From: a virus
Reading direction: 5' to 3' (one strand)
Length of the DNA stretch: 64,000 nucleotides
IMG/VR virus record: IMGVR_UViG_3300022744_000001
Location: 2,022-66,021 of that record
Program-made: the position numbers and the translations under genes
The notes under the pieces: model-generated
The model's input: the letters and a program-made list of their open reading frames with translations, nothing else
Databases searched by the model: none
What the model was told of the DNA's origin: nothing
Shown here: positions 745-59,659 of the stretch, one piece after another
Numbering within the stretch: the stretch's first letter is position 1
How the letters are laid out: every line of letters starts with the position of its first letter

Positions 745-749
745 AAACT

Positions 750-824: not shown

Positions 825-830
825 ATAAAT

Positions 831-907
831 TGGCGTCCCTCCGGGGATTTGAACCCGCGATTTGCAACTTGAGAGGCTGCTGTCCTTGCCAACTAGACGA
901 GAGGGAC
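831..907 (-). tRNA. tRNA-Glu (anticodon CUC), T-stem imperfect
   Basis: 77 nt. Acceptor GUCCCUC/GAGGGAC is perfect, with a Glu-type D region UC-GUC-UAGUUGGCAAGGAC and anticodon arm GCAGC-CUCUCAA-GUUGC. The T-stem gives only 3-4 bp in any register. Confidence 0.6.
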
Positions 908-931
908 AAAATCTGGTGTAACTTCCGGGGC

Positions 932-1261: not shown

Positions 1262-1619
1262 GAGGTACCTAGCCGGGTTCGAGCAAACCATCGAACGGCT
1301 CCCCGGCATCCTCGACCGCTGGGAGAGCATCGAAGACATGCTCTGCGGCGAGTACATCGACCAGCTCGAATGGATGCTCGACGTCCGGGAAGACGTCCTC
1401 AACCTCGCCGTGGAGCAAGGCCAGGGCACCCCGGTTCGTGCCCGCATGGACCGAATCAACGCCGGTCTAGGGCGCCTCAGCATCCGGATCAAAGAGGTCA
1501 TGGGCGTCGATGTTCTCGAGACCCTGACTCCAGAGTTGGAGCCCGCAGTGGGAATCGAACCCACAGCCTCCTGTTTACGAAACAGGTGCTCAACCGTTGA
1601 GCTATACGGGCGAAAGTAA
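1245..1619 (+). CDS. hypothetical acidic protein
   Basis: ATG 1245 lies 17 nt upstream of the upstream gene's stop codon, so the two ORFs overlap (...GGATGAATGTCTCGATTGA). 124 aa. The 3' ~80 nt overlap tRNA-Thr on the opposite strand, so the true C-terminus is uncertain. Confidence 0.45.
   Translation: MNVSIERYLAGFEQTIERLPGILDRWESIEDMLCGEYIDQLEWMLDVREDVLNLAVEQGQGTPVRARMDRINAGLGRLSIRIKEVMGVDVLETLTPELEPAVGIEPTASCLRNRCSTVELYGRK
1537..1611 (-). tRNA. tRNA-Thr (anticodon CGU)
   Basis: 75 nt. Acceptor GCCCGUA/UGCGGGC, D-arm GCUC-AACGGUU-GAGC, anticodon arm CCUGU-UUCGUAA-ACAGG, T-arm GUGGG-UUCGAUU-CCCAC, UCCA end. Confidence 0.85.
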
Positions 1620-1641
1620 CAGGGGCACTCGTACCCCTGTT
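1618..1641. terminator. hairpin between convergent genes
   Basis: AACAGGGG-cactcgta-CCCCTGTT, an 8-bp perfect stem between the + ORF ending at 1619 and the - ORF ending at 1646. Confidence 0.4.
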
Positions 1642-1645
1642 GAAA

Positions 1646-2623
1646 TCAGAAGTTGTCCGAAACGACAACCCAGAAGTCGCTGGCCAACTGGGTGTTCTTC
1701 GCGTAGGCGTAGCTCATCCAGAAGTACCCAGCGAGGCCCCAGTTGACGCCCCACGAGTTGCGAACGAGGAATGCACCCGTGGTGCCGTCGGGCATCTTCT
1801 TGGCGTCGTCGTAACCGACGAGCGCGACAGCATGACCGCCCTGCAAGTGTTCCGTGGGACCCGGCAAGCCAAGAAGCGCTTTCTTGGCCATGTCTGCGGT
1901 CATGAAATAATCGTAAACTTGGAACCCAAATCCAACGAGATACCCCATCGCCAACGTGGACTTCATCGTGGCGATGTCCCCGTCCGCGATCGAGTGGTAG
2001 CTCGTGATCAGCTTCGTAGCTGCCTTGGCCCAGAGGTCCGGGGTTGGGTTGACCGTGAACTTCTGGATGTTGTAAGGCCAGCTGGCCTCGTCCAAAATCC
2101 CGTACTTGACTCCGGTCTTGATGGCATCACGAATCGTGGCGCCCGAGTCTTCGTTGACGGTACCTTCGATCTTACGGGTCGCGTAATACTCAAAGAGCCG
2201 CGACACCTGGGTGAACTTCGGGGCGGGAGTCGGGGCCGGGGTCGGCGTGGGAGCCGGAGCCGGGTTGGACACCGCCACGTTGGTCGTGAACGTGACCGAA
2301 CCGTCCGCATTGACCACGACGTTCGAGGTGGTCACCTTGGCGGTAGCCGCGGTAGCTGCCAGCTTCTTCGAAGTCGCCCCGCGGAGGTCGCTGCTCTCGA
2401 TGAGGGCCGCGAACATATTCGCAGTGCAGCTCCCGAGTTCACCTTGGTCCTCGATAGGGCTGCAAATGGGTCGATTGTCGTAAGAGGGTGGGGTAGCAAA
2501 GAAGTTGCCGGACTTGAGACGGTATCCCTCGTCTCGAGCGTCAACAAGCTGCTTCTTCCAACCACCAACATGAACCCTACGAGGGGTCCCGTCCGCATGA
2601 TGTGCAGTCTTGATCATGCACAT
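1646..2623 (-). CDS. papain-family (C1) cysteine peptidase with internal insert
   Basis: 325 aa. Motifs QGELGSCTAN (catalytic Cys), GGHAVALVGYD (His) and VRNSWGVNWGLAGYFW (Asn/Trp block). A ~70-aa insert after the Cys helix ends in PAPAPTPTPAPTPAP. Confidence 0.8.
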   Translation of the reverse strand: MCMIKTAHHADGTPRRVHVGGWKKQLVDARDEGYRLKSGNFFATPPSYDNRPICSPIEDQGELGSCTANMFAALIESSDLRGATSKKLAATAATAKVTTSNVVVNADGSVTFTTNVAVSNPAPAPTPTPAPTPAPKFTQVSRLFEYYATRKIEGTVNEDSGATIRDAIKTGVKYGILDEASWPYNIQKFTVNPTPDLWAKAATKLITSYHSIADGDIATMKSTLAMGYLVGFGFQVYDYFMTADMAKKALLGLPGPTEHLQGGHAVALVGYDDAKKMPDGTTGAFLVRNSWGVNWGLAGYFWMSYAYAKNTQLASDFWVVVSDNF

Positions 2624-2679
2624 ACGCGTGAATAAGAGGGTTAGTTAGCCCGTAAAACTAGCACTTTTGCTAGTCAAAA

Positions 2680-2754
2680 TGGCTCCGAGGGTAGGGGTCG
2701 AACCTACGACCATCCGGTTAACAGCCGGACGCTCTGCCACTGAGCTACCTCGGA
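2680..2754 (-). tRNA. tRNA-Asn (anticodon GUU)
   Basis: 75 nt. Acceptor UCCGAGG/CCUCGGA, D-arm GCUC-AGUGGCA-GAGC, anticodon arm UCCGG-CUGUUAA-CCGGA, T-arm GUAGG-UUCGACC-CCUAC, GCCA end. Confidence 0.9.
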
Positions 2755-2787
2755 ATAGACTCTGTCCCGCAGGACAGGCCGTAAAAA

Positions 2788-3429
2788 CTACCGTGGTTTT
2801 GCAGTGTCACCTTGGATGTAACCCTGCCGGTCAAGCTCTTCCACGGCGAAGTGGTTCTTCCACTTGATGACCAGGTGCTTCTGCCGGAACTCGTCAACGA
2901 CGATCCGATCCGAGAAAATCGTGACGACCGAGTCGTGGTAGCCGGTTCGGTCGAGAACCTCAACTTCCTGACCCTTGCGGTAGACACGAGAGGTCTGGTT
3001 TGACCACTCATACCCAGCAAGCTCGACTTCCTCTGGGCCGAGAAGCTCTTCCAGAGGCGGTTCGGAAGCCGTGACCGAGCTGGCGAACTTGTCGCTCTCT
3101 TTGGCGGAGTCCTCGACCTTCTTTTCGAAGTCGTGAGGGTCCATGGTCCGAATGTCGAACCACAACGACCGTGCGTGATTCAAGTTGTGGCCACCGGCTC
3201 GGCCGGAGCTGTACGAGACGTACACGGCCTGGGCCTTGAACCAAACCCGAATCGTCCCATCCGGAGACGTCGCGTGCGGCACCTTGAGCCCGTCAACCAC
3301 CTTCCAACGCTCCTTCTTCAAGTGCTCGAGGATTTCAGCTCGAGCTTCAAGGAAGGTCTTGCGCTTGGCGGTCTTGTCAGAGAAGGCCGCGGCGACGCGG
3401 AGGGCGATGTCGATGGGGTGGTTGGCCAT
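2788..3429 (-). CDS. hypothetical protein (213 aa)
   Basis: ATG ORF with TAG stop and coding-like composition. No family recognised. Confidence 0.55.
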   Translation of the reverse strand: MANHPIDIALRVAAAFSDKTAKRKTFLEARAEILEHLKKERWKVVDGLKVPHATSPDGTIRVWFKAQAVYVSYSSGRAGGHNLNHARSLWFDIRTMDPHDFEKKVEDSAKESDKFASSVTASEPPLEELLGPEEVELAGYEWSNQTSRVYRKGQEVEVLDRTGYHDSVVTIFSDRIVVDEFRQKHLVIKWKNHFAVEELDRQGYIQGDTAKPR

Positions 3430-3488
3430 GTGTTCCTCTCTCTACGGGCCGCACGAAAAGAGTAGCGCACCGAAGTGCACCCTCGAAA

Positions 3489-3573
3489 TGGCTCCAGGAG
3501 CAGGATTCGAACCTGCGATTGGGTTTCCCCGCGCGGTTAACAGCCGCGTGCACTACCACTATGCGACCCTGGA
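3489..3573 (-). tRNA. tRNA with anticodon GUU (Asn) and a long variable arm
   Basis: 85 nt. Acceptor UCCAGGG/UCCUGGA, D-arm GCAU-AGUGGUA-GUGC, anticodon arm CGCGG-CUGUUAA-CCGCG. The 15-nt variable region CGGGGAAACCCAAUC contains a GGG-AAA-CCC hairpin. T-arm GCAGG-UUCGAAU-CCUGC, GCCA end. Confidence 0.7.
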
Positions 3574-3576
3574 ATA

Positions 3577-3738
3577 GGTGCGCGCGAAGCGCACCGAAAT
3601 AAAATGGGTGGAGGATCCGAGGCCGGGCATCAAAGCACCACGACCGAAGGTTCGAAGCTCTGGCCGCAACACGACGCCAACAGACCTCGGACCCTCCACC
3701 AAGGAAGGCCCCATAAGAGCCTTCCCTCGTTTCTCTTG
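3577..3738 (+). other. structured non-coding segment inside the tRNA cluster
   Basis: Three elements: hairpin GGTGCGC-gcgaa-GCGCACC (3577-3595); a long-range inverted repeat pairing 3607-3622 with 3685-3700 (15 of 16 bp); then GGAAGGC-N9-GCCTTCC followed by CTCGTTTCTCTTG (3703-3738). ORFs in the track here look non-coding. Confidence 0.3.
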
Positions 3739-3951
3739 CCTCAAGCTAGAGTCGTATCGCCCGTCATGTCCCAGCCGCTGGAGCCCCTCAGTATAGTCGA
3801 GGGTCGATCACGCTCTGGCGCTACACGCATGGAGGTACCATGCGCGACGATTCACGCTCTAACCTGTCAGATTTTCAAAGACTTACCCGATGATTTCCAG
3901 CAAGAAGCCCGGAGGCTCGTACCCGAGGGTACCTGTGCACATCGTGTAACT

Positions 3952-4028
3952 TGGTGGGCCTGCGGGGACTCGAACCCCGAACCGTTCGCTTAAGAGGCGA
4001 CTGCACTGACCAGTTGTGCTACAGACCC
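3952..4028 (-). tRNA. tRNA-Lys (anticodon CUU)
   Basis: 77 nt. Acceptor GGGUCUG/CAGGCCC, D-arm GCAC-AACUGGUCA-GUGC, anticodon loop CUCUUAA, T-arm CGGGG-UUCGAGU-CCCCG, ACCA end. Confidence 0.85.
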
Positions 4029-4077
4029 GAAATTCGCTAATCTACGTCTTGGTACCTGTCCGGAGACAAGTGAAACT

Positions 4078-4152
4078 TGGTGAGGCCAGAGAGACTTGAA
4101 CTCTCAACCGTCGGGTTAAAAGCCCGCTGCACTACCATTGTGCTATGACCTC
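4078..4152 (-). tRNA. tRNA-Lys (anticodon UUU)
   Basis: 75 nt. Acceptor GAGGUCA/UGGCCUC, D-arm GCAC-AAUGGUA-GUGC, anticodon arm GCGGG-CUUUUAA-CCCGA, T-arm GAGAG-UUCAAGU-CUCUC, ACCA end. Confidence 0.85.
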
Positions 4153-4154
4153 AT

Positions 4155-4242
4155 TGGTGGAGGATGATGGAGTCGAACCACTCAGCCTTAATGACGCCTC
4201 GTTTACAGCGAGACCTGCCTCCCGGGGCACACGTCACCCTCC
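4155..4242 (-). tRNA. tRNA-Tyr (anticodon GUA), class II
   Basis: 88 nt. Acceptor GGAGGGU/AUCCUCC, anticodon arm UCUCG-CUGUAAA-CGAGG, long variable arm as in bacterial tRNA-Tyr, T-loop UUCGACU, ACCA end. Confidence 0.75.
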
Positions 4243-5558: not shown

Positions 5559-5574
5559 TGGTGTCACCCACGGC

Positions 5575-6491: not shown

Positions 6492-6510
6492 CCCCGGTGT
6501 AGCCGTACTC

Positions 6511-11412: not shown

Positions 11413-11656
11413 TGGCCTTCACCTTATCGCGGTAGATTTCAGCACAACTGACACAGGTGTGGTCGAGGTGTTTCTCCGTGATCGGAACCTCAAGATCCCA
11501 ACCCTGCCCCGCCTTCGGGTGACCACAAAGAGCCGCGGTCTGGATGCCGCCCCCGAACTTGAGGGGCATGCCTTCCGAAACCGGTCGGATGTGCCAACGA
11601 GCCAACGGCCCCGCATGGATACTCTCACAGAAGGAGTAGGTAACCTTGTTCGACAC
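11399..11656 (-). CDS. hypothetical small Cys-containing protein (85 aa)
   Basis: Its stop overlaps the start of the helicase gene by 14 nt, consistent with an operon. Contains HTCVSCAEIY. No family recognised. Confidence 0.5.
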   Translation of the reverse strand: MSNKVTYSFCESIHAGPLARWHIRPVSEGMPLKFGGGIQTAALCGHPKAGQGWDLEVPITEKHLDHTCVSCAEIYRDKVKANGTP

Positions 11657-11701
11657 TTGAACCTCTACCCCTAGAACGTGCGAGCCCCAGAGAATCTATA
11701 C

Positions 11702-12523
11702 TCAGACGTGCTCGAAAAACAACGACACCTGCTCAGCCAGGACTTGCTCGATCTGGGCATGGTTCGCACTGAAGGCTACACCTCGGCTGTAGCCCAAGGT
11801 CTCGGCGCGCTCGACACGGAACCCGAGCCGGGATGCCTCCCCGAAAGGAGGCGAGCCGTAGTGATGGCCCGAATTTGGGTAGGAAGCGAGCCCCTGCCCC
11901 AGGCAGGCGATGAGAAGCTGTAGGTAAAACCGCCCGTCCTGCAAGATGGGGCACCGAGTCCGCCGATCCAGGTAGGCCACGAACAGGAAAGCCGTGGGCA
12001 CGAGCTTGGCCAACGCCTCTTCGGACAGGGCCTCAGCCTCCCGCGCCTTCTCAGGCAGCATGGCCCGAACGTGCTGAACGATGGGACCCACCTCCACCCG
12101 CTGCTGAGCAGCCCACGTATCGGTAGGCAGCACGATGAATTTCGCCCCGGCCGGATCCACCATGCCAGGCTCCAGCTCGAACAGCTCAGGCAGGAAAAGG
12201 GTCGCAATTGTGCCCTCCGCCTCTTTCTGCCAAGTCACCTTGAACCCGCTCGACTTCAAGACCTCGAGCCGGTCTTCCTTCTTGCGGTACGAGTGGTCTT
12301 TCTGGGTGAAAGCCGCCTTGCGCCCCGACAGCAGGTTCATGACGAAGGGGCGTAGCTCAGCTTCCGACCCCGCAAAGGACACGTGCACCGGCCGAACGTT
12401 GTCCGTGTCGGTCGCGCCACCCTCCCACAAGGCATCCGCCTCGACCAAGGTCAGGCACGAAGCCGAGAAGGATCTGGACTTCCCCTCTTGTTGCGGCGCG
12501 ATGACGATTTCACGGTGGTTCAT
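11702..12523 (-). CDS. hypothetical protein (273 aa) between the two methyltransferase genes
   Basis: ATG ORF on the same strand as its neighbours with tight spacing. No motif recognised. Confidence 0.6.
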   Translation of the reverse strand: MNHREIVIAPQQEGKSRSFSASCLTLVEADALWEGGATDTDNVRPVHVSFAGSEAELRPFVMNLLSGRKAAFTQKDHSYRKKEDRLEVLKSSGFKVTWQKEAEGTIATLFLPELFELEPGMVDPAGAKFIVLPTDTWAAQQRVEVGPIVQHVRAMLPEKAREAEALSEEALAKLVPTAFLFVAYLDRRTRCPILQDGRFYLQLLIACLGQGLASYPNSGHHYGSPPFGEASRLGFRVERAETLGYSRGVAFSANHAQIEQVLAEQVSLFFEHV

Positions 12524-17601: not shown

Positions 17602-17935
17602 ACCCTCGGCGATAGCCCGCCAAAAACAACCGGTTTCTCCACGCATGGCCAGGAGGATAGGGGCGAAGGATTTCCTCCAACTCCCTCTCCGCTTGCCCCT
17701 TTGGCCATCCCGCTTGGATGTACGGCCGCCCCGTTTGGCGATCGTAGATAGCCCAAAGCGGAACGCTTTCAACCTTTTGCGTCCGATTTACGCCTCCGCC
17801 CGGAGGGCGTCGGCCAAAATGACTTGGTTTCGGGAGCCATGGCTTCTCAAGAGGCTCTTCTGAGCCTTCACCCTCATTGAGGCTTGACAAGTCCTCGGGA
17901 TCTCCAAGAAAGCCCTCTTCGTCTTCTGGCTTCAT
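17567..17935 (-). CDS. hypothetical protein (122 aa)
   Basis: ATG ORF with an acidic N-terminus and basic C-terminus. Convergent overlap with 16990..17601. Confidence 0.4.
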   Translation of the reverse strand: MKPEDEEGFLGDPEDLSSLNEGEGSEEPLEKPWLPKPSHFGRRPPGGGVNRTQKVESVPLWAIYDRQTGRPYIQAGWPKGQAERELEEILRPYPPGHAWRNRLFLAGYRRGSKRKEALEGEN

Positions 17936-18162
17936 GAACGCTAGTACACCTCGGTTGGTACCCTTTTGGATGTAACCAACCCTCCATCAGGCGCTCCCTC
18001 GCAAGGAACCCTTCCAGATCTCAACCTCCCCTATGGAGGCCCTTTACCAATGAACCCTATGGTTCTCGCTCCATCCCCTGGAGCCCGTTACCGTTTACCG
18101 TACCTGTTGCTTCTACTGTACCTGCATCGTCATCTACTAGGGGTGCATCTTCTGTATCTGCT

Positions 18163-18216
18163 ACGGTTACTGAATCATCTACGGTTACTGAATCATCTAC
18201 GGTTACTGAATCGGTT
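18163..18216. repeat. 18-bp tandem repeat, 3 copies
   Basis: ACGGTTACTGAATCATCT at 18163-18180 and 18181-18198, and ACGGTTACTGAATCGGTT at 18199-18216. Further ACTGA(A/G)TC boxes extend to about 18260. Confidence 0.9.
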
Positions 18217-18295
18217 ACTTCTGAATCTACTGAGTCTGGATCTACTGAATCATCATCTGAGTCTGTTTCGGTTTTTTGTTCCTTAGCTTCACTAC

Positions 18296-18390
18296 TGATC
18301 CCCTAACGGGGATCATATGGATCAAATTAAGATCCTTAAGGATCTAGATCTAGTAGGGATCCATATTGAGCTACTTCGTATCCGGGGATC
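18296..18390. promoter_or_regulatory. GATC-dense palindromic AT-rich segment
   Basis: 8 GATC sites, starting at 18297, 18311, 18320, 18331, 18341, 18347, 18358 and 18387. Hairpin TGATCCCC-taac-GGGGATCA (18296-18315). Palindromes GATCCTTAAGGATC (18331-18344) and GATCTAGATC (18341-18350). Confidence 0.6.
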
Positions 18391-19324: not shown

Positions 19325-19381
19325 GTTGTGCACGGTGTGCGGTTGTACTGAGTGTGCAAGCGGCCCGGTGTAGAGGGCTCC

Positions 19382-20116: not shown

Positions 20117-20593
20117 GTGATGATCCTTCGTGTCGCCCAAGCCTACCGAGCGGAGTTCGAACAGATGCTCGCCGAGGGGCGAAAGCTCCGCCGGGACTAC
20201 TACGTCCCGGAACGCTACCGGGCTGAGCCTCAGCCCCCGGGGCTCTACGAAGGCCAGCTCCTCGGCCGCAAGATCAAGCGCATGGACGGCGAATGGGTGC
20301 GCGACAACATCGACGTTGACTTCGTCGAAGGTGGGAACCCCTCCCGCTACTCCTATGTGCCCCTCGACGAGCTTTGGGTCGAGATGTCCCTCTCCCCCGT
20401 GGGTCAGACTGCAACCCTTCTCCATGAGGCAGTTGAATGCCACCTCATGGAGAACTACCAGCTGTCCTACAGCAATGCCCATGACATTGCAGCGTTTTTC
20501 GAGTCTCGCTACCGGCAAGACCCCAACACGCCCCTCGATGTTGCGACGGCCGCCGCTGTAACAGAGGCTTTAGAAACGTTAGGTTTGGTGTAA
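20117..20593 (+). CDS. hypothetical protein (158 aa)
   Basis: GTG/ATG start at 20117/20120. Contains LLHEAVECH. No family recognised. Confidence 0.5.
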   Translation: MMILRVAQAYRAEFEQMLAEGRKLRRDYYVPERYRAEPQPPGLYEGQLLGRKIKRMDGEWVRDNIDVDFVEGGNPSRYSYVPLDELWVEMSLSPVGQTATLLHEAVECHLMENYQLSYSNAHDIAAFFESRYRQDPNTPLDVATAAAVTEALETLGLV

Positions 20594-24189: not shown

Positions 24190-27100
24190 TCAGGCCGGTA
24201 CATGGGGCATGATCCACCAGTTGGTCCCGTCGCAAGCTGCATGGAATCCTTGGCGCCCAGATGCCCCGAATGCAACACCGGTAGTGGCCAAAGTTCCGTT
24301 GATGTTTCCGGAGCTGGATTTCAATGTGAAAGTGTTGCTATCCGTGGTGGTCTTCATGAGTGTAAGAGAGTGTCCACCGCTACTAGCAGGTGCAGGCAGC
24401 TGAATGTTTGCGATAGCTCCGCCTGATGTGTCGATCATAGTAAACGCGCCAGAAGACAGAGTTCCGCTGCCTCCGAGTGAGTCTACCTTTGAAAGAATGA
24501 TGGCTCCATACCCAACGCCGAACCCGGACCCGGGCCGACGCCCCACATAGAGGTCTACTGAGTTTGTGGTTAGAACTGCGGTGCCTGCTGCTGGGGCGAT
24601 AACCACTGCGCCGTGGTCGCCAGAGCCAGCAGGGGCGCCCGTGGTCAGCGTGATGTCTCCGCCGTTCTGGTTGCCGCCGACAGCCGAAGTTGCTGTGATG
24701 TTGACCGCGCCGCCGACCCCAGAAGTGGCTGTGGTGCCCGCAGAGATATTTACGGTGCCACCAACACCATTGGCGTTGTTGGCGCCTCGGACCGTGACCG
24801 AGCCAGCGGTTCCAGACCCGGTTGAGACACCGCCTGCGATAGTGATGCTTCCACCATTTTGGTTGCTTCCAGCAGCTGCACCCGCGGTAACGACGATGGC
24901 GCCACCTGTGCCTGAACCGCTAGCAGCACCAGCAGTGATAGTGACTTGGCCGCCAGCCCCCGAGGTTGAACCGCCAGCCCCCGCAAGGAGCAGAGCAGTA
25001 CCTCCGCTACCTGTAGCGCCTCCAGCTCCCGCACGAAGGGACGCGCCACCTCCCCCAGAAGAGCCTCGGCTGCTGCCTGCGGTGAAACTGATATCTCCAC
25101 CGGCGCCGGACGTAGCAGAAGCATTCGCGCTGCCTCCTGTAGCGGTGAAGCTACCGCCGTTGCCGCTACCAGTGCCGCCGGTACCTCCAGTGAAGGTAAA
25201 GGAACCGCCGACACCAGTTTGACCAGCTCCACTCGAGGCCGCTCCCGCGTTGAATGTGAAGCTTCCGCCGTTGTTGGCGCTCAAGCTTCCACCGCTGCCG
25301 CCAGTGAAAGTGATCGAACCGCCAGAGCCGCTCGATGTGCTGCCACAAGTGAGGGCGATGGAGCCACCAGCACCCGATGTTGAAGCGCCCGCAGTGATTT
25401 GAAGGGCTCCGCCAGCACCAGAGGTAGAACCGCCCACGCCTGAGAACAGCTGGAGAACAGCACCTGCTCCCGTTGCGCCCGAGGTACCGGGTTGAACCAG
25501 AAGGGCGCCCGCCGCCGAAGCACCGAAACCATCACCGGTTCGAATCGTGGTGGTTCCGCCAACCGCCGACGAACCGCCAGAGACGGCATCCGCCCCCTTG
25601 ATGGTTACAGAGCCTGCTGTGCCGCCGTTAGTCGGGGAGCCACCCGTGATGGTGATTGCACCACCAGCTTGAGTGGTACCTACGCCCGCTCCGCCCGTGA
25701 TGGAGAGGGCTCCGCCAGCACCAGACGTCGTAGCTGCACCACCCTGGAGAGAAAGGGTGCCTCCAGCTCCAGAAGTGGCACCACCAGGACCGCCTTTGAC
25801 GACTACCGAGCCGCCCGTGTTGGTACCTCCAGGAGTGCCGCCTTGGATGGTGACTGTGCCACCGTTACCCGCGGCAAGAGAGGTGCCTCCGTTGATGTTG
25901 AGGGCACCACCAGCACCGGTCAGGCCCCCGGTACCTCCCTGTGCTGTCAGGGAGTACCCAGTTCCAGCTCCGACAAGATCGGCAGGTTTGATAGTCGGGG
26001 AGGTGCCAGTGGTAACAACCACCCCGCTATCAATCAATGCTGTAGCCGCCGAGCTACTCCAGACGGGGACCCCGTTGGTGTTCCCAGAACCTGGGCCTGT
26101 GACCCCGCCCCCACCTCCGGTTCCTCCAAGAGGGAGCACTCGCCACGCGTTGCTGGTGTAGTCCCGCACTAGCAACGCCGCAGAACCACCAGTCAGGGAG
26201 TAATCGGTTGCCGAAGGGCAAATAAGCCGATTGAATGCAGACGATCCAGCATCTTGGTGTTTGAGGGTCAGTGTCGTACTGGAGCGGTTTACAAGGAAAC
26301 GCTGTGAGTAGGACAGGTCGAGGTCAGTGTCGCGGAAGAAGCCCGTAACGGTTGCACCCGAAGTGACCGCATCAAAAAAGATCGTCCGCGCAAAACGCCA
26401 CTTGTAGATGTCTCCAAGCTTGTAGTCGTTGTTGGTGCCGCTGACCGAGACCGACGCGGTCTGCTCGATGGAGGGGTAAGTGAAAAGGTTGTCACTCGTC
26501 CCGCCAAAGTTGTTGTTCGCGAACTTCGAAGCGTTGTTGTTCGTTGCGTCGGTAGTGACAGGATTGTTGAACAACACGATTGAGGCCGGGGCACCGTCGT
26601 CAACCAAGTACCCAGAGGTTCCGACGTTCGCGTTGAAGATCTGAAGGTACCCTCCGTTGGTAATGAATGGGTACCCTGTGATACCTGCCAACCAAGTGCT
26701 TGCTGGGAATTCACAATAGACGTCGAGCGATCCGCCATTGCCTGCATTAATCCACGAAGACGTTGCGGCCCCATCGGTGTAGAGCTGGGAAAATCTCCCC
26801 AAGGTAATCGAGGGGTAATCGCTGGGGCTCATCGTATAGAGGGCCCCAGACGTCTTGTGGTTGACCATCACTACGTTTTCGATTCGACGAGGCAGCTTAA
26901 CGATGACCGCGGGGTCATAGAAGTTCATGACCGCTGTGCCGAGAGGATCTGTTGACGAGCGGCCAACGATCTCACAGTCCGTGAAGTCAAAGGAGTTGCT
27001 ACCGCTAAGGGGTACATTCGTAAGCAGCGTGATTCGACACGGGCCAGGGTGCCTTGCTGCAAGAAGCAGAGCCATGTCGTTATACGTGTTGCCCGAAGGT

Positions 27101-27192
27101 GAGGCTCCCGAGTCAAACACGAAGTCAGCCACCACGATTTCCTCGAAGGTGTGCCCAGCGGCGCTCGACAAAACTGGATAGCGATTCGACAT
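24190..27192 (-). CDS. glycine-rich repeat fibre/tailspike-like protein (1000 aa)
   Basis: A ~370-aa non-repetitive N-terminal region is followed by ~500 aa of degenerate GGxG/GAGG repeats (for example GGTGGLTGAGGALNINGGTSLAAGNGGTVTIQGG). The C-terminal domain is distinct. Confidence 0.65.
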   Translation of the reverse strand: MSNRYPVLSSAAGHTFEEIVVADFVFDSGASPSGNTYNDMALLLAARHPGPCRITLLTNVPLSGSNSFDFTDCEIVGRSSTDPLGTAVMNFYDPAVIVKLPRRIENVVMVNHKTSGALYTMSPSDYPSITLGRFSQLYTDGAATSSWINAGNGGSLDVYCEFPASTWLAGITGYPFITNGGYLQIFNANVGTSGYLVDDGAPASIVLFNNPVTTDATNNNASKFANNNFGGTSDNLFTYPSIEQTASVSVSGTNNDYKLGDIYKWRFARTIFFDAVTSGATVTGFFRDTDLDLSYSQRFLVNRSSTTLTLKHQDAGSSAFNRLICPSATDYSLTGGSAALLVRDYTSNAWRVLPLGGTGGGGGVTGPGSGNTNGVPVWSSSAATALIDSGVVVTTGTSPTIKPADLVGAGTGYSLTAQGGTGGLTGAGGALNINGGTSLAAGNGGTVTIQGGTPGGTNTGGSVVVKGGPGGATSGAGGTLSLQGGAATTSGAGGALSITGGAGVGTTQAGGAITITGGSPTNGGTAGSVTIKGADAVSGGSSAVGGTTTIRTGDGFGASAAGALLVQPGTSGATGAGAVLQLFSGVGGSTSGAGGALQITAGASTSGAGGSIALTCGSTSSGSGGSITFTGGSGGSLSANNGGSFTFNAGAASSGAGQTGVGGSFTFTGGTGGTGSGNGGSFTATGGSANASATSGAGGDISFTAGSSRGSSGGGGASLRAGAGGATGSGGTALLLAGAGGSTSGAGGQVTITAGAASGSGTGGAIVVTAGAAAGSNQNGGSITIAGGVSTGSGTAGSVTVRGANNANGVGGTVNISAGTTATSGVGGAVNITATSAVGGNQNGGDITLTTGAPAGSGDHGAVVIAPAAGTAVLTTNSVDLYVGRRPGSGFGVGYGAIILSKVDSLGGSGTLSSGAFTMIDTSGGAIANIQLPAPASSGGHSLTLMKTTTDSNTFTLKSSSGNINGTLATTGVAFGASGRQGFHAACDGTNWWIMPHVPA

Positions 27193-30262: not shown

Positions 30263-30290
30263 GCCTCAGTGACACCGGTATAGAAACTCC

Positions 30291-30319
30291 AGGGCTCCTG
30301 CGTTACCAGGGCAAGGAGA
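30291..30319 (+). promoter_or_regulatory. conserved upstream motif, copy 1
   Basis: AGGGCTCCTGCGTTACCAGGGCAAGGAGA sits immediately 5' of ATG 30327. It shares GGGCTC..GCGTTACCAGGGCAAGGA with 35163-35193. Confidence 0.5.
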
Positions 30320-30326
30320 ACGAGCC

Positions 30327-30584
30327 ATGTCGAAGTGTCAAGCCGGAACCCACATCACCATCGAACGCGACGGTCGCGAAATCGACGTCCTGGTCAACGG
30401 GTTCGTCATCCTGGAAGAGGGTCAGGTTGTTGATGCGGAGTTCACCGACGCCCACGACGACAACGGCGAGATCAAGCTCACCGAGAGCGAAATCGATACC
30501 GCTACCGACGAACTGATGGGCTCCTATGACAACCATCTCGAGGACGGGGAGGAGTTCCCGGAGCATGGCTACGACCACGACTGA
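30327..30584 (+). CDS. small acidic protein (85 aa)
   Basis: ATG lies 8 nt after AAGGAG. Highly acidic. Confidence 0.55.
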   Translation: MSKCQAGTHITIERDGREIDVLVNGFVILEEGQVVDAEFTDAHDDNGEIKLTESEIDTATDELMGSYDNHLEDGEEFPEHGYDHD

Positions 30585-30695
30585 GGGTTTGTTTTAGGTA
30601 GACGATCGCAGGCATTCTGGAGTACAACATCCAGACTGATCTTTTGTGACATCCCTGTGTCAGACCATGCGCAACATATAGCGCCGCTGACCATG

Positions 30696-33051: not shown

Positions 33052-33729
33052 GTGGACAGTAGCGCAGAAGAGTTTGAGCAGATAGTGCGCGAGAGTTTAT
33101 CCGCTGCACAAGCCCTACGAAAACTGGACCGGGCTACCGTGGGGTCCAACTACGACTGGGTGCGTCGGGAGGTTCAACGGTTTGGGCTCGACACATCTCA
33201 CTGGGGAAGAGCTGGTGCTCGCAATACAACCCCGAACCTCGATGAGGTTTTCATTGAGAATGGTGCCTACTCAACAGGTCTTGTTAAGACGATCATTCTT
33301 CGTGAACGTTTACTCCCGGAGCTGTGTGCTGAGTGTGGATTAGGACCCTCCTGGAGGGGTAAGAAATTAGTCCTCCGCCTTGACCACAAAAACGGGAAAC
33401 GAAGTGATCACCGGCTCGGAAACTTGCGTTTTCTGTGTCCGAACTGCGACTCTCAAACAGAGACATTTTGCGGTCGCAACAAACGTCTCCCAGCCAAGCT
33501 GTGTAAATGCGGGGTGGCAATAGGGCAGCAGTCCGCAGCTTGCAGGTCGTGCACGGCAAAAAGCAGAAAACCAACAACGAAAATCGTTTGGCCTCCATTC
33601 GAGGAAGTGCAGGAAAGGGTCAAAAACACCTCCTTCCTTGCCACAGCCAAACATCTTGGTGTATCAGATAATGCAGTTCGGAAGTTTTTACGCTCCCGTG
33701 CCCGAGTGGTTGAAGGGGCAGGATTCTAA
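33052..33729 (+). CDS. HNH homing-endonuclease-like protein
   Basis: LRLDHKNGKRSDHRLGNLRFLCPNCDSQ is an HNH core. N-terminal ...GLDTSHWGR and C-terminal LGVSDNAVRKFL are HTH-like. Visibly lower GC than the flanks. The last 38 nt overlap the tRNA. Confidence 0.75.
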   Translation: MDSSAEEFEQIVRESLSAAQALRKLDRATVGSNYDWVRREVQRFGLDTSHWGRAGARNTTPNLDEVFIENGAYSTGLVKTIILRERLLPELCAECGLGPSWRGKKLVLRLDHKNGKRSDHRLGNLRFLCPNCDSQTETFCGRNKRLPAKLCKCGVAIGQQSAACRSCTAKSRKPTTKIVWPPFEEVQERVKNTSFLATAKHLGVSDNAVRKFLRSRARVVEGAGF

Positions 33730-33783
33730 ATCCTTGGGGCCGCAAGGCCCACGCCGCAGGTTCGAACCCTGCCGGGAGCGCCA
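33692..33783 (+). tRNA. suppressor tRNA, anticodon CUA (reads UAG), serine-type architecture
   Basis: 92 nt: GCUCCCG-UG-CCC-GAGUGGUUGAA-GGG-G-CAGGA-UUCUAAA-UCCUU-[20-nt variable arm G-GGGCC-GCAA-GGCCC-ACGCC]-GCAGG-UUCGAAC-CCUGC-CGGGAGC-G-CCA. The acceptor and T stems pair perfectly. Confidence 0.8.
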
Positions 33784-34991: not shown

Positions 34992-35162
34992 GATTTCCTC
35001 CAGTTCGCGTTGTGTTCAGGTCGATGACGAGACTGAACGGCGCGTGGAGGACCACGAGGAGCGTGCGCTAAAGGATGTAGCTAGTGACCCATGACTTCCA
35101 TCCTAAACACCGGACCGCGGGGGTCAAGAGGGGAAATTCGATCTGGTCGGTTTAGGCTCGAG

Positions 35163-35193
35163 GGGGCTCGCGCGTTACCAGGGCAAGGAAGGC
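35163..35193 (+). promoter_or_regulatory. conserved upstream motif, copy 2
   Basis: GGGGCTCGCGCGTTACCAGGGCAAGGAAGG sits immediately 5' of ATG 35203. Confidence 0.5.
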
Positions 35194-35202
35194 TGGTGTC
35201 AG

Positions 35203-35415
35203 ATGGCAACGAAGAGCGGATTCGTGTTCAAGAAGGAAGGGTTCGTGATCGAGTTCAAGCAGGACGACGGTCGTTGGACCGACGACTTGGGAGGCGTGAC
35301 CCTCAACGAGTTCAGCGCCGAATCGGACGCGCAGGTTGTCCTGGACTCTCTTCGCACCCTGGAAGGGGTTTGGGCGAGCCGGGAGTACCGCATCAGCCCG
35401 GTGTGGTTCGAGTGA
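35203..35415 (+). CDS. small hypothetical protein (70 aa)
   Basis: ATG lies 10 nt after AAGGAAGG. Acidic. Confidence 0.5.
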   Translation: MATKSGFVFKKEGFVIEFKQDDGRWTDDLGGVTLNEFSAESDAQVVLDSLRTLEGVWASREYRISPVWFE

Positions 35416-36408: not shown

Positions 36409-36461
36409 GCCACAATAGCCGGAACTTCCCGAGCGCGCCAGGGCCCGGTGTCCAAGAGGGC

Positions 36462-39036: not shown

Positions 39037-39055
39037 GGAAGCGGGTACACCGAGG

Positions 39056-40638: not shown

Positions 40639-40830
40639 ATGGACCCTCCCTTCGATGAGTCCGTTCCATCTACTGGCAAATATAAGCCATGTTCCAAAAA
40701 ATGTGAAGTGGAAAATGTCGATTTCGCTTGACTAGCTTTTTCCGCTACGTCCTGCACACGCAGGGGAGGGGTTTTCTTCCAACTGGGTTGAGATTCGGAC
40801 CCTCTCGCGCGTTCTAGGGGTGAGGAGATT

Positions 40831-41199
40831 TTGATGTCACAGGAAACAGCAATCGAGACCCGCCCTTGTGAACTGTGCAAGGGGAGCGGAAGAAGGACCG
40901 GAACCAACCACCCGTGCTTGGTTTGCGATGGGATCGCCAGATTCCCGTCTTTCGATTCGGAGCGCATCCTGGGGCTCATCTTGACCCAAGGCCGCCTTAC
41001 GTCCGAGATTCATGCGATGACCGAGGACGAGACCTTGAACAGTCGGGCCTTTTTCGTCTGGGCGACCATCAGGAAACTCAAAGGGGTGTCCGACCCCATG
41101 GAACAAGTCCACGCCGGGCTCGCCATTACAGGGGACCCCTTCCGTACGGAGCTGGAAACTTTGGCTGGAGAGCTTTACACGAAAGAGGTTGCGGCGTGA
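40831..41199 (+). CDS. hypothetical protein with CxxCxGxG-type zinc finger
   Basis: GAGGAG lies 8 nt upstream of the ATG. CELCKGSG...CLVCDG. Confidence 0.55.
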   Translation: MMSQETAIETRPCELCKGSGRRTGTNHPCLVCDGIARFPSFDSERILGLILTQGRLTSEIHAMTEDETLNSRAFFVWATIRKLKGVSDPMEQVHAGLAITGDPFRTELETLAGELYTKEVAA

Positions 41200-41840
41200 A
41201 CGCAGCACAGTACCTGGGCAAGCGGTGGGAGAAAACGTTGCAGGTGCTTCGGGTGCCTTCAGCCCCCGCCACCACGGCAATGATCTCAGAGATCCTTCAC
41301 CAGTACGCTGAGCCCGGCCGGGCCTACCACAACCTCGAGCACCTTCGCTTTTGCTTCACCGTGATAGACGACGTCATGGCGAAGCTCCCCGGCATCGGCG
41401 CCGTAGAACTCGCGCTCTGGTACCACGATTTCTTCTACGACACGCACGCTCAAGACAACGAGGAGCGAAGTGCTGCTCACGCTCGAGACCAACTCATTGG
41501 TTCTGGGTTCGGCCGCGGCTTCGCCAACCAAGTCGAAAACCTGATCCTCGCCACGAAGCACTCGAACGAGCCGAAGACACGGGAAGCCAAAGTCCTGCTC
41601 GACGTGGACATCTCCATTTTCAGCGCGACCACAGAAGAGTACGACGCCTACGAGACCGGGATTCGTCGCGAATACCACTGGGTCCCTGAAGAACAGTTCC
41701 GGGCCCGCCGTGTTGAAGTGCTCGAGCGCTTCCTGTCTCGGCAGTGGATTTATGCTACGCCCGAGTTCAGAAGCGGGCCGTACGAGACGCTCGCTCGAGC
41801 CAACCTCACGCGCGCCATTGCGGCACTGAAGGCCCCATGA
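41196..41840 (+). CDS. HD-domain-like metal-dependent phosphohydrolase (COG4339-like)
   Basis: GTG start overlaps the upstream stop (GTGA). AYHNLEHL...LALWYHDFFYD pattern. Confidence 0.55.
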   Translation: MNAAQYLGKRWEKTLQVLRVPSAPATTAMISEILHQYAEPGRAYHNLEHLRFCFTVIDDVMAKLPGIGAVELALWYHDFFYDTHAQDNEERSAAHARDQLIGSGFGRGFANQVENLILATKHSNEPKTREAKVLLDVDISIFSATTEEYDAYETGIRREYHWVPEEQFRARRVEVLERFLSRQWIYATPEFRSGPYETLARANLTRAIAALKAP

Positions 41841-41989
41841 ACAGCCCTTTGTTCAAGCACTCCGCGAAATACTGCACTCACTGCCAGAAAAACTCGAGGG
41901 AGCAGGTTCACTACCAGCGAGGCTTCAACAAGGGTGTGCACTGGCAATGCAAGATCTGTGGGAGAAAGTCCGTGCGTTGCTCTAAGTGA
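41837..41989 (+). CDS. small zinc-ribbon protein (50 aa)
   Basis: ATGA overlap with the upstream gene. CTHCQ...CKICG. Confidence 0.45.
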   Translation: MNSPLFKHSAKYCTHCQKNSREQVHYQRGFNKGVHWQCKICGRKSVRCSK

Positions 41990-43628
41990 ATCGGTGCCCG
42001 CCGGACTCCTTGGAGTCGTACATGGCGGCATCCGCGATCCGTACAAGGCTCTCAGGCTCACGCCCGTGCGTTGGGAACAAGGCCAGACCGATGCTGGCGC
42101 GAACCCCAACCTCTTCTCCGGAGGGCAGCTCGATAGGCTCCCCTACCAAGTTGAGGATCTTCGTCGCCACTGGGCCTGCATCGCCTTCTTGCGCAAGGTC
42201 GTCCAGCACAACGACGTACTCGTCGCCCCCTAGTCTGGCCACGACGTCGGTTCTTCGCACGCAAGCTCGGAGCCGGGCCGCGACCTCCTTGAGCACGATG
42301 TCTCCAGCGTCATGGCCGTGAGTGTCATTGACCTCTTTGAAGCCGTCGAGGTCGATGAACAGGACTGCGAGCTTGCTGTCGTACTGCTCTGCTCGAGCGA
42401 GCTTCGAAGCCAACGTGTTCATCAGCGTCGCCCGGTTCTGGAGCCCCGTGAGCGGGTCAGTATGGGCTGCTTTGATGAGGGCTGCCTCGGTCCTCTTTCG
42501 CTCAGTTACGTCACGGGCCACAACATAGAGCTTCCCCTCCACGTGAGCAGGGAAGTGCCAGGAGAGCCATCGCCACGTCCCATCTTTGCACCGGGCCCTG
42601 CACTCGAACTTCACCCCGTCGTAACCGCTGGCGAGCTTTGAGAGCTGCTCCTGCATGTCCATCCGGTCATCCGGGTGGAGCAGGTCGAAGATGGGGCGGC
42701 AAAGCAGCTCGTCCTCGGAGAAGCCCAGGACGCGAGTGAACGAGGGGTTCACTCGGATGAAGTAGCCGTCAAGCCGTGCGACACAGATGAGGTCAAGGCT
42801 CACGGTGAAGAGTCGATCGCGCTCTTCCTCGGCTCGTTTGCGGTCCGTGACGTCGGTGGCGGCCCAAAGGTAGCCAACGAGGTCTCCGGTGTCTTCTCGC
42901 ATGACCACCGTCTTCGCGCTGACCCAGAGAATGGATCCGTCGGGCCGAAGAAATCGGAACTCATGCTCGAACGAGAGGCCGAGGTCTGTGAGCCGCCGCC
43001 ACGCCATCATGACCGCTCGTCGGTCGTCTGGGTGCACAGCTCGAGTCCAGCCTTGCCCGTAGCACTCCTCGAGAGACAGGCCGCACATCTCCGACCAGGT
43101 TCGGTTCACAAACCCGCACCGGCCATGCTCGTTGGTCATGAGGGTGCCCGCGGGGGTCTCGTGGATGAACGCTCGGAGCTTGCTCTCGCTCTCGCGAAGG
43201 GCCCGCTCCATGTTCTTGGTGGCAGAGATGTCCCGGAAGGTGAGTAGAGCCCCGTGCGGTTTCTGCCCAGGCTTCTGAAGCGGGCGCGTGTTCGTGCTGA
43301 CCCAAACGGCAGTCCCATTCGGGCGAGCAACCTCCAGCACAACACTCGAGAGGGCGATGCCCGTGCGCAGGGACACTACGGCCGGGTGGTCATCCTTCGA
43401 AAGGAGAGACCCGTCCTCGCATGAAATACGAGGCGCATCGGACATATACTTTCCGATCAGGTCCTTCTCTGTAACCCCGAGGATCCGGGCCGCACAAGGG
43501 TTCGCCTCAACGATCTGTTCGGTTGCATCGATGACGAAGACCCCCTCCTCCATTGATTCGATCAAGGAGCGGTAGAATGCCTCATCTAACTGCAATCCCG
43601 CACTTTTGGTTACGTCTGAGTTCGGCAT
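41982..43628 (-). CDS. PAS-PAS-PAS-GGDEF diguanylate cyclase
   Basis: 548 aa. Three PAS-like repeats, each ending in a ...DVT(D/E)RK-type linker. The GGDEF domain has LFIDLDGFKEVNDTHGH, the active site RLGGDEYVV, and an RxxD (RRTD) 5 residues upstream. Confidence 0.85.
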   Translation of the reverse strand: MPNSDVTKSAGLQLDEAFYRSLIESMEEGVFVIDATEQIVEANPCAARILGVTEKDLIGKYMSDAPRISCEDGSLLSKDDHPAVVSLRTGIALSSVVLEVARPNGTAVWVSTNTRPLQKPGQKPHGALLTFRDISATKNMERALRESESKLRAFIHETPAGTLMTNEHGRCGFVNRTWSEMCGLSLEECYGQGWTRAVHPDDRRAVMMAWRRLTDLGLSFEHEFRFLRPDGSILWVSAKTVVMREDTGDLVGYLWAATDVTDRKRAEEERDRLFTVSLDLICVARLDGYFIRVNPSFTRVLGFSEDELLCRPIFDLLHPDDRMDMQEQLSKLASGYDGVKFECRARCKDGTWRWLSWHFPAHVEGKLYVVARDVTERKRTEAALIKAAHTDPLTGLQNRATLMNTLASKLARAEQYDSKLAVLFIDLDGFKEVNDTHGHDAGDIVLKEVAARLRACVRRTDVVARLGGDEYVVVLDDLAQEGDAGPVATKILNLVGEPIELPSGEEVGVRASIGLALFPTHGREPESLVRIADAAMYDSKESGGHRFT

Positions 43629-54153: not shown

Positions 54154-54729
54154 GTGCATAACTCCGCCTTGATGCACGCAAATCCTACGAAATCCTCCAT
54201 CGGCTTCCTCGCAGCCCCAAGTGACGCGACCCTGACCGCGCTCTGCGCCAAGCACACCTCACTCACTCGTGTGCAATGGAATCTGCGACCTTTCGGCCCG
54301 GAGTTCATGGGACGGGTCTGGGTGGATGAGATGGAGCACCTCCAGTTCAGGAGAACTCACCACTACTTCCACACGTACTTCCGGTCTCCCAGCGAGGTCG
54401 CTGTACGTGTAGCCCTCGCCCTCGCCCTCGAAGCCACGGAACCAGCACTATCTCCCGCTCGGGCCGCCGCGCTTCTCTCCAAATCCGAGACCGTGGTCAT
54501 CCGGAAGATCGACCGAGAACTCAAGGTCAAGATCAACCGAAGTAGCCCGCTCGAGCACTTCAGCGTCTGGGTGCACCCTAAGAGCAGAGAGCAAGTGCGC
54601 GTCTCCAGTGTCAACTTCGGTGAAGTCCGCGTCATGTATGTGGGCAGAACGCTTGAAACCGACACTCAGCGTGAACCTAGCTTTGTATCCAACTTCCGCC
54701 TCCTTGGGGTTGAGCAGTTAGCGGTGTAG
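54154..54729 (+). CDS. hypothetical protein (191 aa)
   Basis: ATG ORF with TAG stop. Confidence 0.5.
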   Translation: MHNSALMHANPTKSSIGFLAAPSDATLTALCAKHTSLTRVQWNLRPFGPEFMGRVWVDEMEHLQFRRTHHYFHTYFRSPSEVAVRVALALALEATEPALSPARAAALLSKSETVVIRKIDRELKVKINRSSPLEHFSVWVHPKSREQVRVSSVNFGEVRVMYVGRTLETDTQREPSFVSNFRLLGVEQLAV

Positions 54730-54737
54730 CGTGGTGA

Positions 54738-54956
54738 GTGACTCTCGAGGAAGATGAGGATACCGGGGTTCTTGTGCAGATTGGGGCGGAAGAGGTCGGG
54801 TATTATCCTGACGGGACGCCCATGATCATGTACTTCCCTCTGGATTTTGATTACCCGCCCAAGCCCGGCACTCTGGAACACCAGGAGGCCATCGCCCCCT
54901 ACGTCCACGCTCTCATTTTCGCGTTCGCCCCAGGCCCCCAGGACATCGACTTCTGA
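54738..54956 (+). CDS. small acidic protein (72 aa)
   Basis: GTG start. Confidence 0.4.
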   Translation: MTLEEDEDTGVLVQIGAEEVGYYPDGTPMIMYFPLDFDYPPKPGTLEHQEAIAPYVHALIFAFAPGPQDIDF

Positions 54957-56168: not shown

Positions 56169-56200
56169 GCTCCAGTTTACACCGCGGTGTACTAGGGCGC

Positions 56201-59031: not shown

Positions 59032-59068
59032 TCCGCCTTATACACCGCGCCGCGGATTTTGCAGCGAA

Positions 59069-59551
59069 TCAGCGACCGAGGTCGCGTTCCTTGCGCTCCC
59101 ACATGGCTTCATGGGCCAGGTGCATCTCGAGGCCGCAGGAATAACCCTCCTCCACAGCGCGACGTTCGTTGTAGTCGTAGAGCTTGTCCTGAGCGATCAT
59201 TTCGGCTGTGTCCACCCAAAGCTCGGGGGTCACCTTCTTGCCCGCCAGAGCGCGAATCACGAGAGCCTTGAACTCTTCGGCCGTTCCACCCGCGGACACA
59301 AACATTCCGCGGAAGTGCATGGCGGCGTTGCGGTGAATCCGGAGGTGGTGAGCGCGAGCTTCCGCCTCGCTGAGCCGATCCCCGTCACGGTCGTATTCCG
59401 GATGAGGGACGTTCCCGCCGTGAAAGCGGCACTTGTGCCAGGTATCAAGGTCCGAGTTGAGCCAGCCACCGCCACGGCAAGGGCACTTGGAGGGGTTGAC
59501 TTCCGCCCACATCCCGCGCTCAAGCTCGTTGTATTCGTGCTGCATGCTCAT
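59069..59551 (-). CDS. hypothetical protein (160 aa)
   Basis: ATG ORF containing CPCRGGGW...HKCRFH. Confidence 0.55.
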   Translation of the reverse strand: MSMQHEYNELERGMWAEVNPSKCPCRGGGWLNSDLDTWHKCRFHGGNVPHPEYDRDGDRLSEAEARAHHLRIHRNAAMHFRGMFVSAGGTAEEFKALVIRALAGKKVTPELWVDTAEMIAQDKLYDYNERRAVEEGYSCGLEMHLAHEAMWERKERDLGR

Positions 59552-59659
59552 CTTCGTACCCGTCCTTCCTTGCCTAAAGAACGCGGAAGGCCCTCAGAAT
59601 CTATACTGGGAGCAGCGATTTTTCGAGAGCTGTGAGCAAGCCAGCGGAATCAAAAGCGT

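Follow-up and report, generated by a model that had tools for sequence, protein, structure and literature searches.

A bipartite promoter-like module recurs upstream of unrelated small genes in a likely huge phage

The genes of uncultured huge phages are almost wholly unannotated, and to our knowledge nothing is known of how their expression is organised. Promoters of the T7/SP6 type are conserved without a break over ~23 bp (-17 to +6). The sites of the T4 regulator RegA are short and degenerate and overlap the AUG, while RegB cleaves at GGAG. T4-type early promoters with promoter-early stem-loop (PeSL) elements and the lambdoid 'morons' are phage promoter-plus-gene cassettes. Here we describe a recurrent element in a 64,000-nt stretch of viral DNA (positions 2,022 to 66,021 of IMG/VR record IMGVR_UViG_3300022744_000001; hereafter the window), analysed together with ~10 kb of flanking sequence on each side that was reached via window proteins, giving 84 kb and 116 called genes. 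A preliminary description had singled out a ~27-nt element in front of two small genes of the window; this 27-mer is the downstream half of a ~50-nt promoter-like cassette. Among bacterial promoters, those of the EcfG type have the consensus GGAAC-N16-CGTT, and promoters of extracytoplasmic function (ECF) sigma factors tolerate variants of the -10, are expected to have their transcript start a short distance away, and carry a nearly invariant AAC triplet in the -35 (PMC7083833, PMC8103513). Huge phages are known to encode sigma-70-family factors of their own (PMC7162821).

The two sequences reported in the preliminary description were found where it had placed them. Their common 18-mer, GCGTTACCAGGGCAAGGA, has exact copies at 30300-30317 and 35172-35189, each on the + strand and each with GGGCTC-NN standing 5' of it. 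Both copies end in a Shine-Dalgarno sequence (SD), and the ATGs follow at 30327 and 35203, as described. When up to three mismatches were allowed, three matches were obtained where 0.03 would be expected, and a count of three was not reached in any of 100 dinucleotide-preserving shuffles, in agreement with the earlier judgement that an 18-nt repeat is very unlikely to have arisen by chance. However, two features of the element as first drawn had to be revised. Its conservation does not end at ~27 nt, but runs 22 nt further 5' to a G-TATAGA / G-TTTAGG box, and it is not restricted to two gene-linked copies, since at least seven further members exist.

Two 30-mers that resemble each other, at 11673-11702 and 59578-59607, emerged from a repeat search; when read on the - strand, they are similar to the sequence just 5' of and within the first copy. 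Ten sites align gap-free when anchored on (G/A)CGTT, and define a module of the form G-T(A/T)TAG(A/G), N7, GGGCTC-like, N2, (G/A)CGTT(CT/AC), N6-7, AGGAG-like SD, N5-14, start codon. The spacer between the upstream box and CGTT is exactly 16 nt long, and its 3' part is GGGCTC-gc. The pattern T[AT]TAG[AG]-N16-CGTT occurs eight times in the 84 kb, against 0.14 expected, and the same two halves are never paired there at N14, 15, 17 or 18. Nine copies are robust, with leave-one-out position weight matrix (PWM) scores of 16-34 bits, as compared with 13 bits for the best match within a gene and 14.8 bits for the best match in 353 kb of unrelated DNA. They are anchored at 11679(-), 30300(+), 35172(+), 40809(+), 59584(-) and 60568(-) in the window (m1 to m6, in this order), and at 64275(-), 67781(-) and 68045(-) in the right flank (L013 positions 9556, 6050 and 5786). 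The tenth site, at 66649(-), is doubtful (leave-one-out score 0.5 bits), and a weak extra candidate lies at 68985(+) (15.7 bits). Six or seven copies are clustered between 59.5 and 69 kb.

All members are intergenic, in a sequence of which 17.5% is intergenic, and are aimed at a gene start no more than ~45 nt downstream; in the tightest gaps, the TAG within the module box doubles as the stop codon of the upstream gene. The earlier idea of a shared cis-element is borne out by this bipartite motif, with its rigid N16 and its intergenic copies all co-oriented with a gene start. The preliminary description had also named an outcome that would speak against that idea, namely a longer dispersed repeat unrelated to gene starts: the element did prove to be longer and dispersed, yet it is tightly tied to gene starts.

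Conservation within the module is strongly position-specific. CGTT is invariant in 9/9 robust members and in the sites of both relatives described below. The upstream box carries A or T at position 2 and an unvarying AG at positions 4-5, and T does not occur at its position 6. Almost no information is carried by the sequence 5' of the G-TATAGA box or by the N7 segment; the positions richest in information are found 20-45 nt 5' of the SD. The SD itself starts 6-7 nt past the hexamer in eight of the ten sites (the nine robust ones plus 66649), and its distance to the start codon is variable (5 to 14 nt). Subfamilies can be recognised, with GCGTTACCARG in four members and GGCAAGGA in three, and with GTTCTAGGGGT shared by m1 and m4; the 18-nt identity of the two copies noted first reflects this subfamily structure.

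Relatives of the window were found via a 377-aa marker protein, and include three syntenic contigs at 68%, 62% and 59% identity of the marker (L071, L072 and L073, respectively). Full contigs of relatives are ERZ27257137:k141_1327245, ERZ27252182:k141_4300365 and SRR21686412_37393. In L072, a 20.1-bit site (GTTTAGG-N7-AGGGTC-gc-ACGTTAT-ctaggggt-AGGAG-N7-ATG) precedes the ortholog of window gene 40834-41199, the gene that follows m4 (36% aa identity, E = 6e-16), with a gene orthologous to 41196-41840 (52%) coming next. Compared with the window, the site retains the box together with 'TC-gc', CGTT and N16, and has changes in the N7 segment and at the GGG positions, which is the pattern predicted by the information profile of the module. 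In L071, a 16.2-bit site lies before a 92-aa ORFan (an open reading frame with no known relatives), and both fall between the orthologs of 54172-54729 and 54738-54956, two window genes with 8 nt between them; in this single case, the module and its ORFan are a cassette that is present or absent between conserved neighbours. No convincing site was found in L073, in two relatives at ~50% identity, in 39 IMG/VR relatives (32-51%), or in the Xanthomonas jumbo phage XacN1. As sites occur only in the closest relatives, the module is confined to a narrow subclade. XacN1 shares only a two-gene block with the window and has neither this motif nor the second signal described below, with T4-like late-promoter boxes instead.

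Further conserved blocks (AAATATA; GTGAAG.GG.A.A.GTCGA.TT; TTT..GCTACGT) were noticed when the divergent intergenic region 5' of m4 (40639-40786) was compared with L072 13705-13883 (-); they may be signals for the divergent 67-aa gene or another element. Searches of larger collections returned little. Megablast and blastn against phage and plasmid collections gave no close DNA relatives, and IMG/VR held no related loci for the two flanking proteins. Neither GCGTTACCAGGGCAAGGA nor the extended pattern had a match in viral contigs. The extended pattern had eight matches in Joint Genome Institute (JGI) metagenomes, all of them single-copy chance ones, and the 47 matches to GCGTTACCAGGGCAAGGA in GTDB genomes all lie in coding sequence for R-Y-Q-G-K, with the upstream box at none. 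'Moraphage' belongs to a different lineage, and the paper describing it is without promoter analysis (PMC12619734).

Judging from its sequence organisation, the module is very probably a promoter of some kind. Because it consists of two short boxes held at a rigid spacing with free sequence between them, it would be a DNA site read by one protein complex. A sigma-dependent promoter with short leaders is favoured, because the geometry is ECF-like and the SD (or ATG) starts ~7 nt past the hexamer; we give about even chances to the assignment, by sequence and by analogy, of the upstream box as the -35 and of CGTT(CT/AC) as the -10. A factor of the sigma-70 family, ECF-like and either phage-encoded or borrowed from the host, would read the upstream box as -35, and the same factor would read CGTT(CT/AC) as the -10 element. 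Transcription would start ~7 nt past the hexamer, and the mRNAs would begin at or just before the SD, with very short leaders. In member 67781 the ATG lies exactly 6 nt past CGTTAC, with no usable SD; a full-length match to DUF6573 (model positions 3-138, residues 6-137) validates this start. Were the hexamer the -10, this mRNA would be leaderless, its 5' end coinciding with the AUG. The cassette would give unrelated small ORFan genes, and the genes downstream of them in operons, a common transcriptional programme, and cassette plus gene would be a unit open to gain or loss.

The likeness to ECF/EcfG promoters lies in the bipartite structure, in the rigid 16-nt spacer (16-17 nt in ECF promoters), which is also kept in L071 and L072, and in the identical CGTT core of the -10. 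In contrast, the G-T(A/T)TAG(A/G) box, the conserved GGGCTC-gc in the spacer, the SD at a fixed 6-7 nt and the setting in a phage genome are unlike ECF/EcfG. Several observations weigh against the assignment of the two boxes given above. The -35-like box (GTATAGA, GTTTAGG, GTTGAGA) does not contain the AAC triplet, and TATAGA is the most AT-rich and most easily melted part of the module, as would be expected of a -10. GGGCTC-gc is more conserved than is usual for spacers, an SD at the extreme 5' end of an mRNA would be unusual, and in L071 the AGGGnnAGGAG tract stays beside the SD and not beside the hexamer, which hints at an RNA-level role of the 3' part. Finally, the precomputed Pfam hits for the 116 genes include no sigma factor or RNA polymerase domain. 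The earlier suggestion of a phage-specific promoter for a sigma-like factor thus stands for the promoter, which is the best-supported reading, and found no counterpart in these hits for the factor.

Other promoter types fit less well. A consensus scan for housekeeping sigma-70 sites (TTGACA-N17-TATAAT) gave no + strand site at either of the two copies noted first, and the box departs from a sigma-70 -10, which has A at position 2 and T at position 6. The module is like T7/SP6 promoters in being a strongly conserved phage-specific sequence that would reach into the transcript start, with TATAG(A/G) (compare SP6, …CACTATAGAAG, and T7, …CACTATAGGG). Unlike these, it has a free N7 segment and its conservation extends 29 nt downstream; a T7-type promoter is excluded because nothing is conserved upstream of the box, and no gene for a T7-type single-subunit RNA polymerase was seen in the 84 kb. 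Sigma-54 (GG-N10-GC, TGGCAC-N5-TTGC) was rejected on inspection: GGGCTC-NN-GCGTTCT/AC has TTCT/TTAC in place of TTGC, and the predicted start would fall inside the SD.

The main rival assigns the boxes differently. TATAGA would be the -10 or initiator, with a start ~7 nt later near GGGCTC, and the 27-mer would be a conserved leader of ~35 nt, bound as linear RNA by a translational repressor, an activator or a nuclease in the manner of RegA/RegB; control of the RegA type was the second possibility raised in the preliminary description. We think this reading unlikely. The easily melted, AT-rich TATAGA would suit this arrangement, as would the unbroken conservation from GGGCTC to the SD in m2 and m3, the AGGGnnAGGAG tract that stays by the SD as the hexamer distance changes in L071 and L072, and the ability of the CTC-containing box to pair with the SD in some members. 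The module also recalls T4 RegA/RegB targets in its location at the ribosome-binding sites of several unrelated phage genes and in its GGAG-type SDs. However, the box does not have the two key positions of a sigma-70 -10, and 5' of it there is neither a conserved -35 nor a T7-type upstream region. RNAalifold gave 0 pairs and hence no consensus structure, box-SD pairing is no better than in shuffles (60% vs 58%), and single-sequence folding z-scores range from -2.1 to +1.6 without trend. A RegA-like operator is disfavoured because of this lack of RNA structure, because the informative positions lie far upstream of the SD, and because member 67781, with its verified start, would carry a 27-nt leader with no usable SD. 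The spacing, too, is rigid in a DNA-like manner unlike RegA sites, and the element stands at a variable distance (5 to 14 nt or more) from the AUG. No RegA-family (Translat_reg) domain occurs in the Pfam hits, and Rfam at the gathering threshold yielded tRNAs only and no cis-regulatory RNA.

The module could instead be conserved mainly as a recombination substrate or cassette boundary, PeSL- or moron-like, whose near-identical copies would let small genes be shuffled, gained and lost, with expression secondary. We regard this as quite improbable as the main explanation; it is compatible with the promoter reading. The module and ORFan inserted in L071 between genes adjacent in the window fit such shuffling, and so do the ORFan nature of the genes behind modules, the clustering of copies between 59.5 and 69 kb and the stretches of identity between m2 and m3 and between m1 and m4. 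On the other hand, position-specific conservation, a free N7 and a rigid N16 are a signature of protein recognition, the module is kept at an orthologous position although the protein has diverged down to 36% identity, and stretches of identity of at most 18 nt are short for homologous recombination. A very remote alternative is that TTACCAGGGCAA is the operator of a dimeric repressor, overlapping the promoters of genes 30327 and 35203 and with a third copy at 147-158. The preliminary description had listed that site as a further occurrence of the core; the sequence is indeed present, but it is not a member of the family, as it has no upstream box and a PWM score below 12, and lies inside a called - strand gene (at nt 38-55). 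The core is a partial dyad (TTaCC-AG-GGcAA), TTNCCNNGGNAA is found 6 times where 1.14 would be expected, the third site (AATGCATTACCAGGGCAATGCA, 141-162, +) has a perfect 6-bp inverted repeat (TGCATT...AATGCA) around the 12-mer core, and an Xre-type helix-turn-helix gene lies at 932-1261. The idea of a dimeric operator was nevertheless rejected: the inverted-repeat arms are missing from m2 and m3, the other three TTNCCNNGGNAA matches share nothing more with the core, and some exact 12-mer of the 18-mer appears in 20 of 600 shuffles (p ~0.03), so that a third site in coding sequence may be due to chance. The features of the 18-mer are explained by the subfamily variation of the module.

Sigma-dependent transcription thus remains the preferred reading, and by analogy the module most resembles an ECF-type promoter in function and phage promoter-plus-gene cassettes in genomic behaviour. 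As in PeSL and moron cassettes, near-identical promoter modules stand before small, unrelated, fast-evolving ORFans, in a unit that is present in L071 and absent from the window. At least one unit, that of m2, ends in a terminator-like hairpin; behind most units no terminator is apparent. In sequence the module bears no relation to sigma-70 early promoters, and no conserved stem-loop accompanies it, unlike in the T4 early/PeSL arrangement. From its sequence, the module looks like a lineage-specific, previously undescribed class of phage promoter that is ordinary in kind, and we would place it, as a new lineage-specific member, among the broad class of phage or alternative-sigma promoters, where it is unsurprising in kind.

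The six members in the window can be described as follows, with leave-one-out scores in bits. The copy noted first, m2 (30278-30329, +; 24.9), comprises GTATAGA at 30278-30284, GGGCTC at 30292-30297, GCGTTAC at 30300-30306, the SD AGGAG at 30314-30318 and the ATG at 30327. Its counterpart m3 (35150-35205, +; 26.0) has GTTTAGG at 35150-35156, GGGCTC at 35164-35169, GCGTTAC at 35172-35178, the SD AAGGAAGG and the ATG at 35203. They sit in divergent intergenic regions of 64 nt and 211 nt, respectively. In m1 (11654-11701, -; 29.9), GTATAGA at 11701-11695 and ACGTTCT at 11679-11673 are followed by the SD AGAGG and a GTG start at 11656, and in m4 (40787-40836, +; 20.6) GTTGAGA and GCGTTCT (40809-40815) are followed by GAGGAG and an ATG at 40834. 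The highest score is that of m5 (59549-59606, -; 33.7), with GTATAGA at 59606-59600, GCGTTCT at 59584-59578, the SD AAGGAAGG and an ATG at 59551. In m6 (60519-60590, -; 25.6), GTTTAGG at 60590-60584 and GCGTTAC at 60568-60562 are separated from AGGAG and the ATG at 60521 by a 9-codon mini-ORF. This mini-ORF (60555-60527, -; ATG CTG AGG TAT ATT GGC CTC GGC TGG TAG) begins 4 nt past the hexamer and ends just 5' of the AGGAG of the 79-aa gene; it could encode a leader peptide or be a coincidence.

The proteins encoded downstream of the modules (63-160 aa) come from mutually unrelated small ORFs, and the repeats are therefore not explained by gene duplication. As the preliminary description stated, the products of the m2 gene (30327-30584, +; 85 aa, pI 4.1) and of the m3 gene (35203-35415, +; 70 aa, pI 4.6) are acidic and without significant similarity to each other (best E = 0.05 over 32 aa). 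Both are ORFans: among 5.8 billion proteins they had no homologs but themselves, and an exhaustive HMMER search of 1.84 billion cluster representatives with the 85-aa protein returned only itself. The AlphaFold model of the latter (mean pLDDT 56) was too poor for a fold search. The m1 gene, also of 85 aa, overlaps at its end the gene for a 1266-aa DUF6094 methyltransferase/SNF2 helicase. The m5 gene encodes 160 aa and is followed by a DUF4419 gene, and the m6 gene encodes 79 aa in one of two gene calls, its start being uncertain as two assemblies differ. A terminator-like hairpin with a T-run was found only after the m2 gene (30616-30645), and several other members run directly into co-directional genes.

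A second and commoner gene-start signal is cGGTGT(A/C), which precedes the ATG by 8-11 nt (mode 9). It opens ORFs of at least 60 codons at 24 sites in the 84 kb, against three in 252 kb of GC-matched unrelated DNA. None of the 18 called genes that carry it has a strong SD, as compared with 30 of the 98 other genes. It is found within operons, where the gap can be as small as 9 nt, and also at divergent and operon starts. Examples lie at 5560-5565, 6496-6501, 19367-19372, 20587-20592 and 36447-36452, on the - strand at 30271-30276, 39046-39051 and 59041-59046, and on both strands at 56178-56191. The signal is common to relatives down to ~48% marker identity (L071-L077, L079, L084, L091 and L104) and is absent from more distant ones. 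The 64-nt divergent region at m2 (30263-30326) is wholly occupied by two back-to-back signals: TCTATA-CCGGTGTC-N8-ATG on the - strand, for a dual-specificity phosphatase gene, and the module on the + strand, whose TATAGA box abuts the heptamer of the second signal on the opposite strand.

Its sequence and position make cGGTGT(A/C) a candidate for a minimal promoter of leaderless mRNAs or, alternatively, for a phage-specific signal of SD-independent translation initiation. Signals of the latter kind have been proposed for huge phages with genes for ribosomal proteins and initiation factors. A tentative and rather doubtful extension would be that two private signals, which exclude each other, mark gene starts in this clade, the ECF-like promoter plus strong SD for small ORFans and the SD-replacing cGGTGT(A/C)-N9-ATG for about one fifth of the genes, which together would be a code for temporal or translational gene classes.

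The genomic setting is that of a likely huge phage. Part of a 448,224-bp metagenome contig (ena:ERZ27252002:k141_47206, at roughly 326,750-390,730) matches the window at 99.9-100% identity. The 377-aa marker protein matches phrog_2087 (E = 6e-101). Its homologs occur in 504 deposited phage genomes, of which XacN1 is the best, and others are carried by many metagenome contigs with lengths of 340-470 kb and by 39 viral contigs from IMG/VR, which reach 510 kb. The 84 kb contain neither a capsid nor a terminase gene. A plasmid or integrative and conjugative element origin, hinted at by the DUF6094/SNF2 gene and by N6/N4 methylases, was dropped in view of 12 tRNA genes, the PHROG match and the phage and IMG/VR records. 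Eleven of these tRNA genes are clustered at 507-4239 (-; Arg x2, Ala, Glu x2, Thr, Asn x2, Lys x2, Tyr), an arrangement characteristic of very large phages. A suppressor tRNA at 33692-33783 (+) has the anticodon CTA and a long variable arm, and was labelled 'Pyl' by ARAGORN; there is no sign of TAG recoding, TAG being an ordinary stop in 26 of the 116 genes. Other encoded functions include peptide deformylase, a PTH2-type peptidyl-tRNA hydrolase, NUDIX and nucleotide-metabolism enzymes and DNA methyltransferases, along with many ORFans.

Additional features were noticed in the same DNA. A TACTGAATCATCTACGGT-like 18-nt tandem repeat occupies 18150-18273 within a long stretch devoid of genes (17602-18365). 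Loci mapped on its two sides differ by 18 nt in their offset relative to the ENA contig, and window and contig may here differ by one repeat unit. A 1000-aa protein encoded at 24190-27192 (-) has many degenerate internal repeats of ~15 to 50 aa (DNA repeat families D1 and D2) and no Pfam or PHROG match, and may be a structural protein of fibre or beta-helix type. PAS-GGDEF and GAF-GGDEF diguanylate cyclases are encoded at 41982-43628 (-) in the window and at 1-716 of L013. Conservation of the PAS-GGDEF gene in relatives L071 and L073 suggests that the phage manipulates host cyclic di-GMP signalling.

What the module offers is of use for annotating this clade, and corrects the functional unit from 27 nt to ~50 nt. 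Its wider reach is modest, as families of phage-specific promoters and cassettes of promoter plus gene are well known. The promoter class predicts a matching sigma-like factor and provides a compact part for reporter assays. Statistically clean and kept in relatives, it groups ORFans into a co-regulated set that would probably serve host takeover or anti-defence, and of which one member, m1, appears from the sequence to drive a methyltransferase/SNF2 helicase operon.

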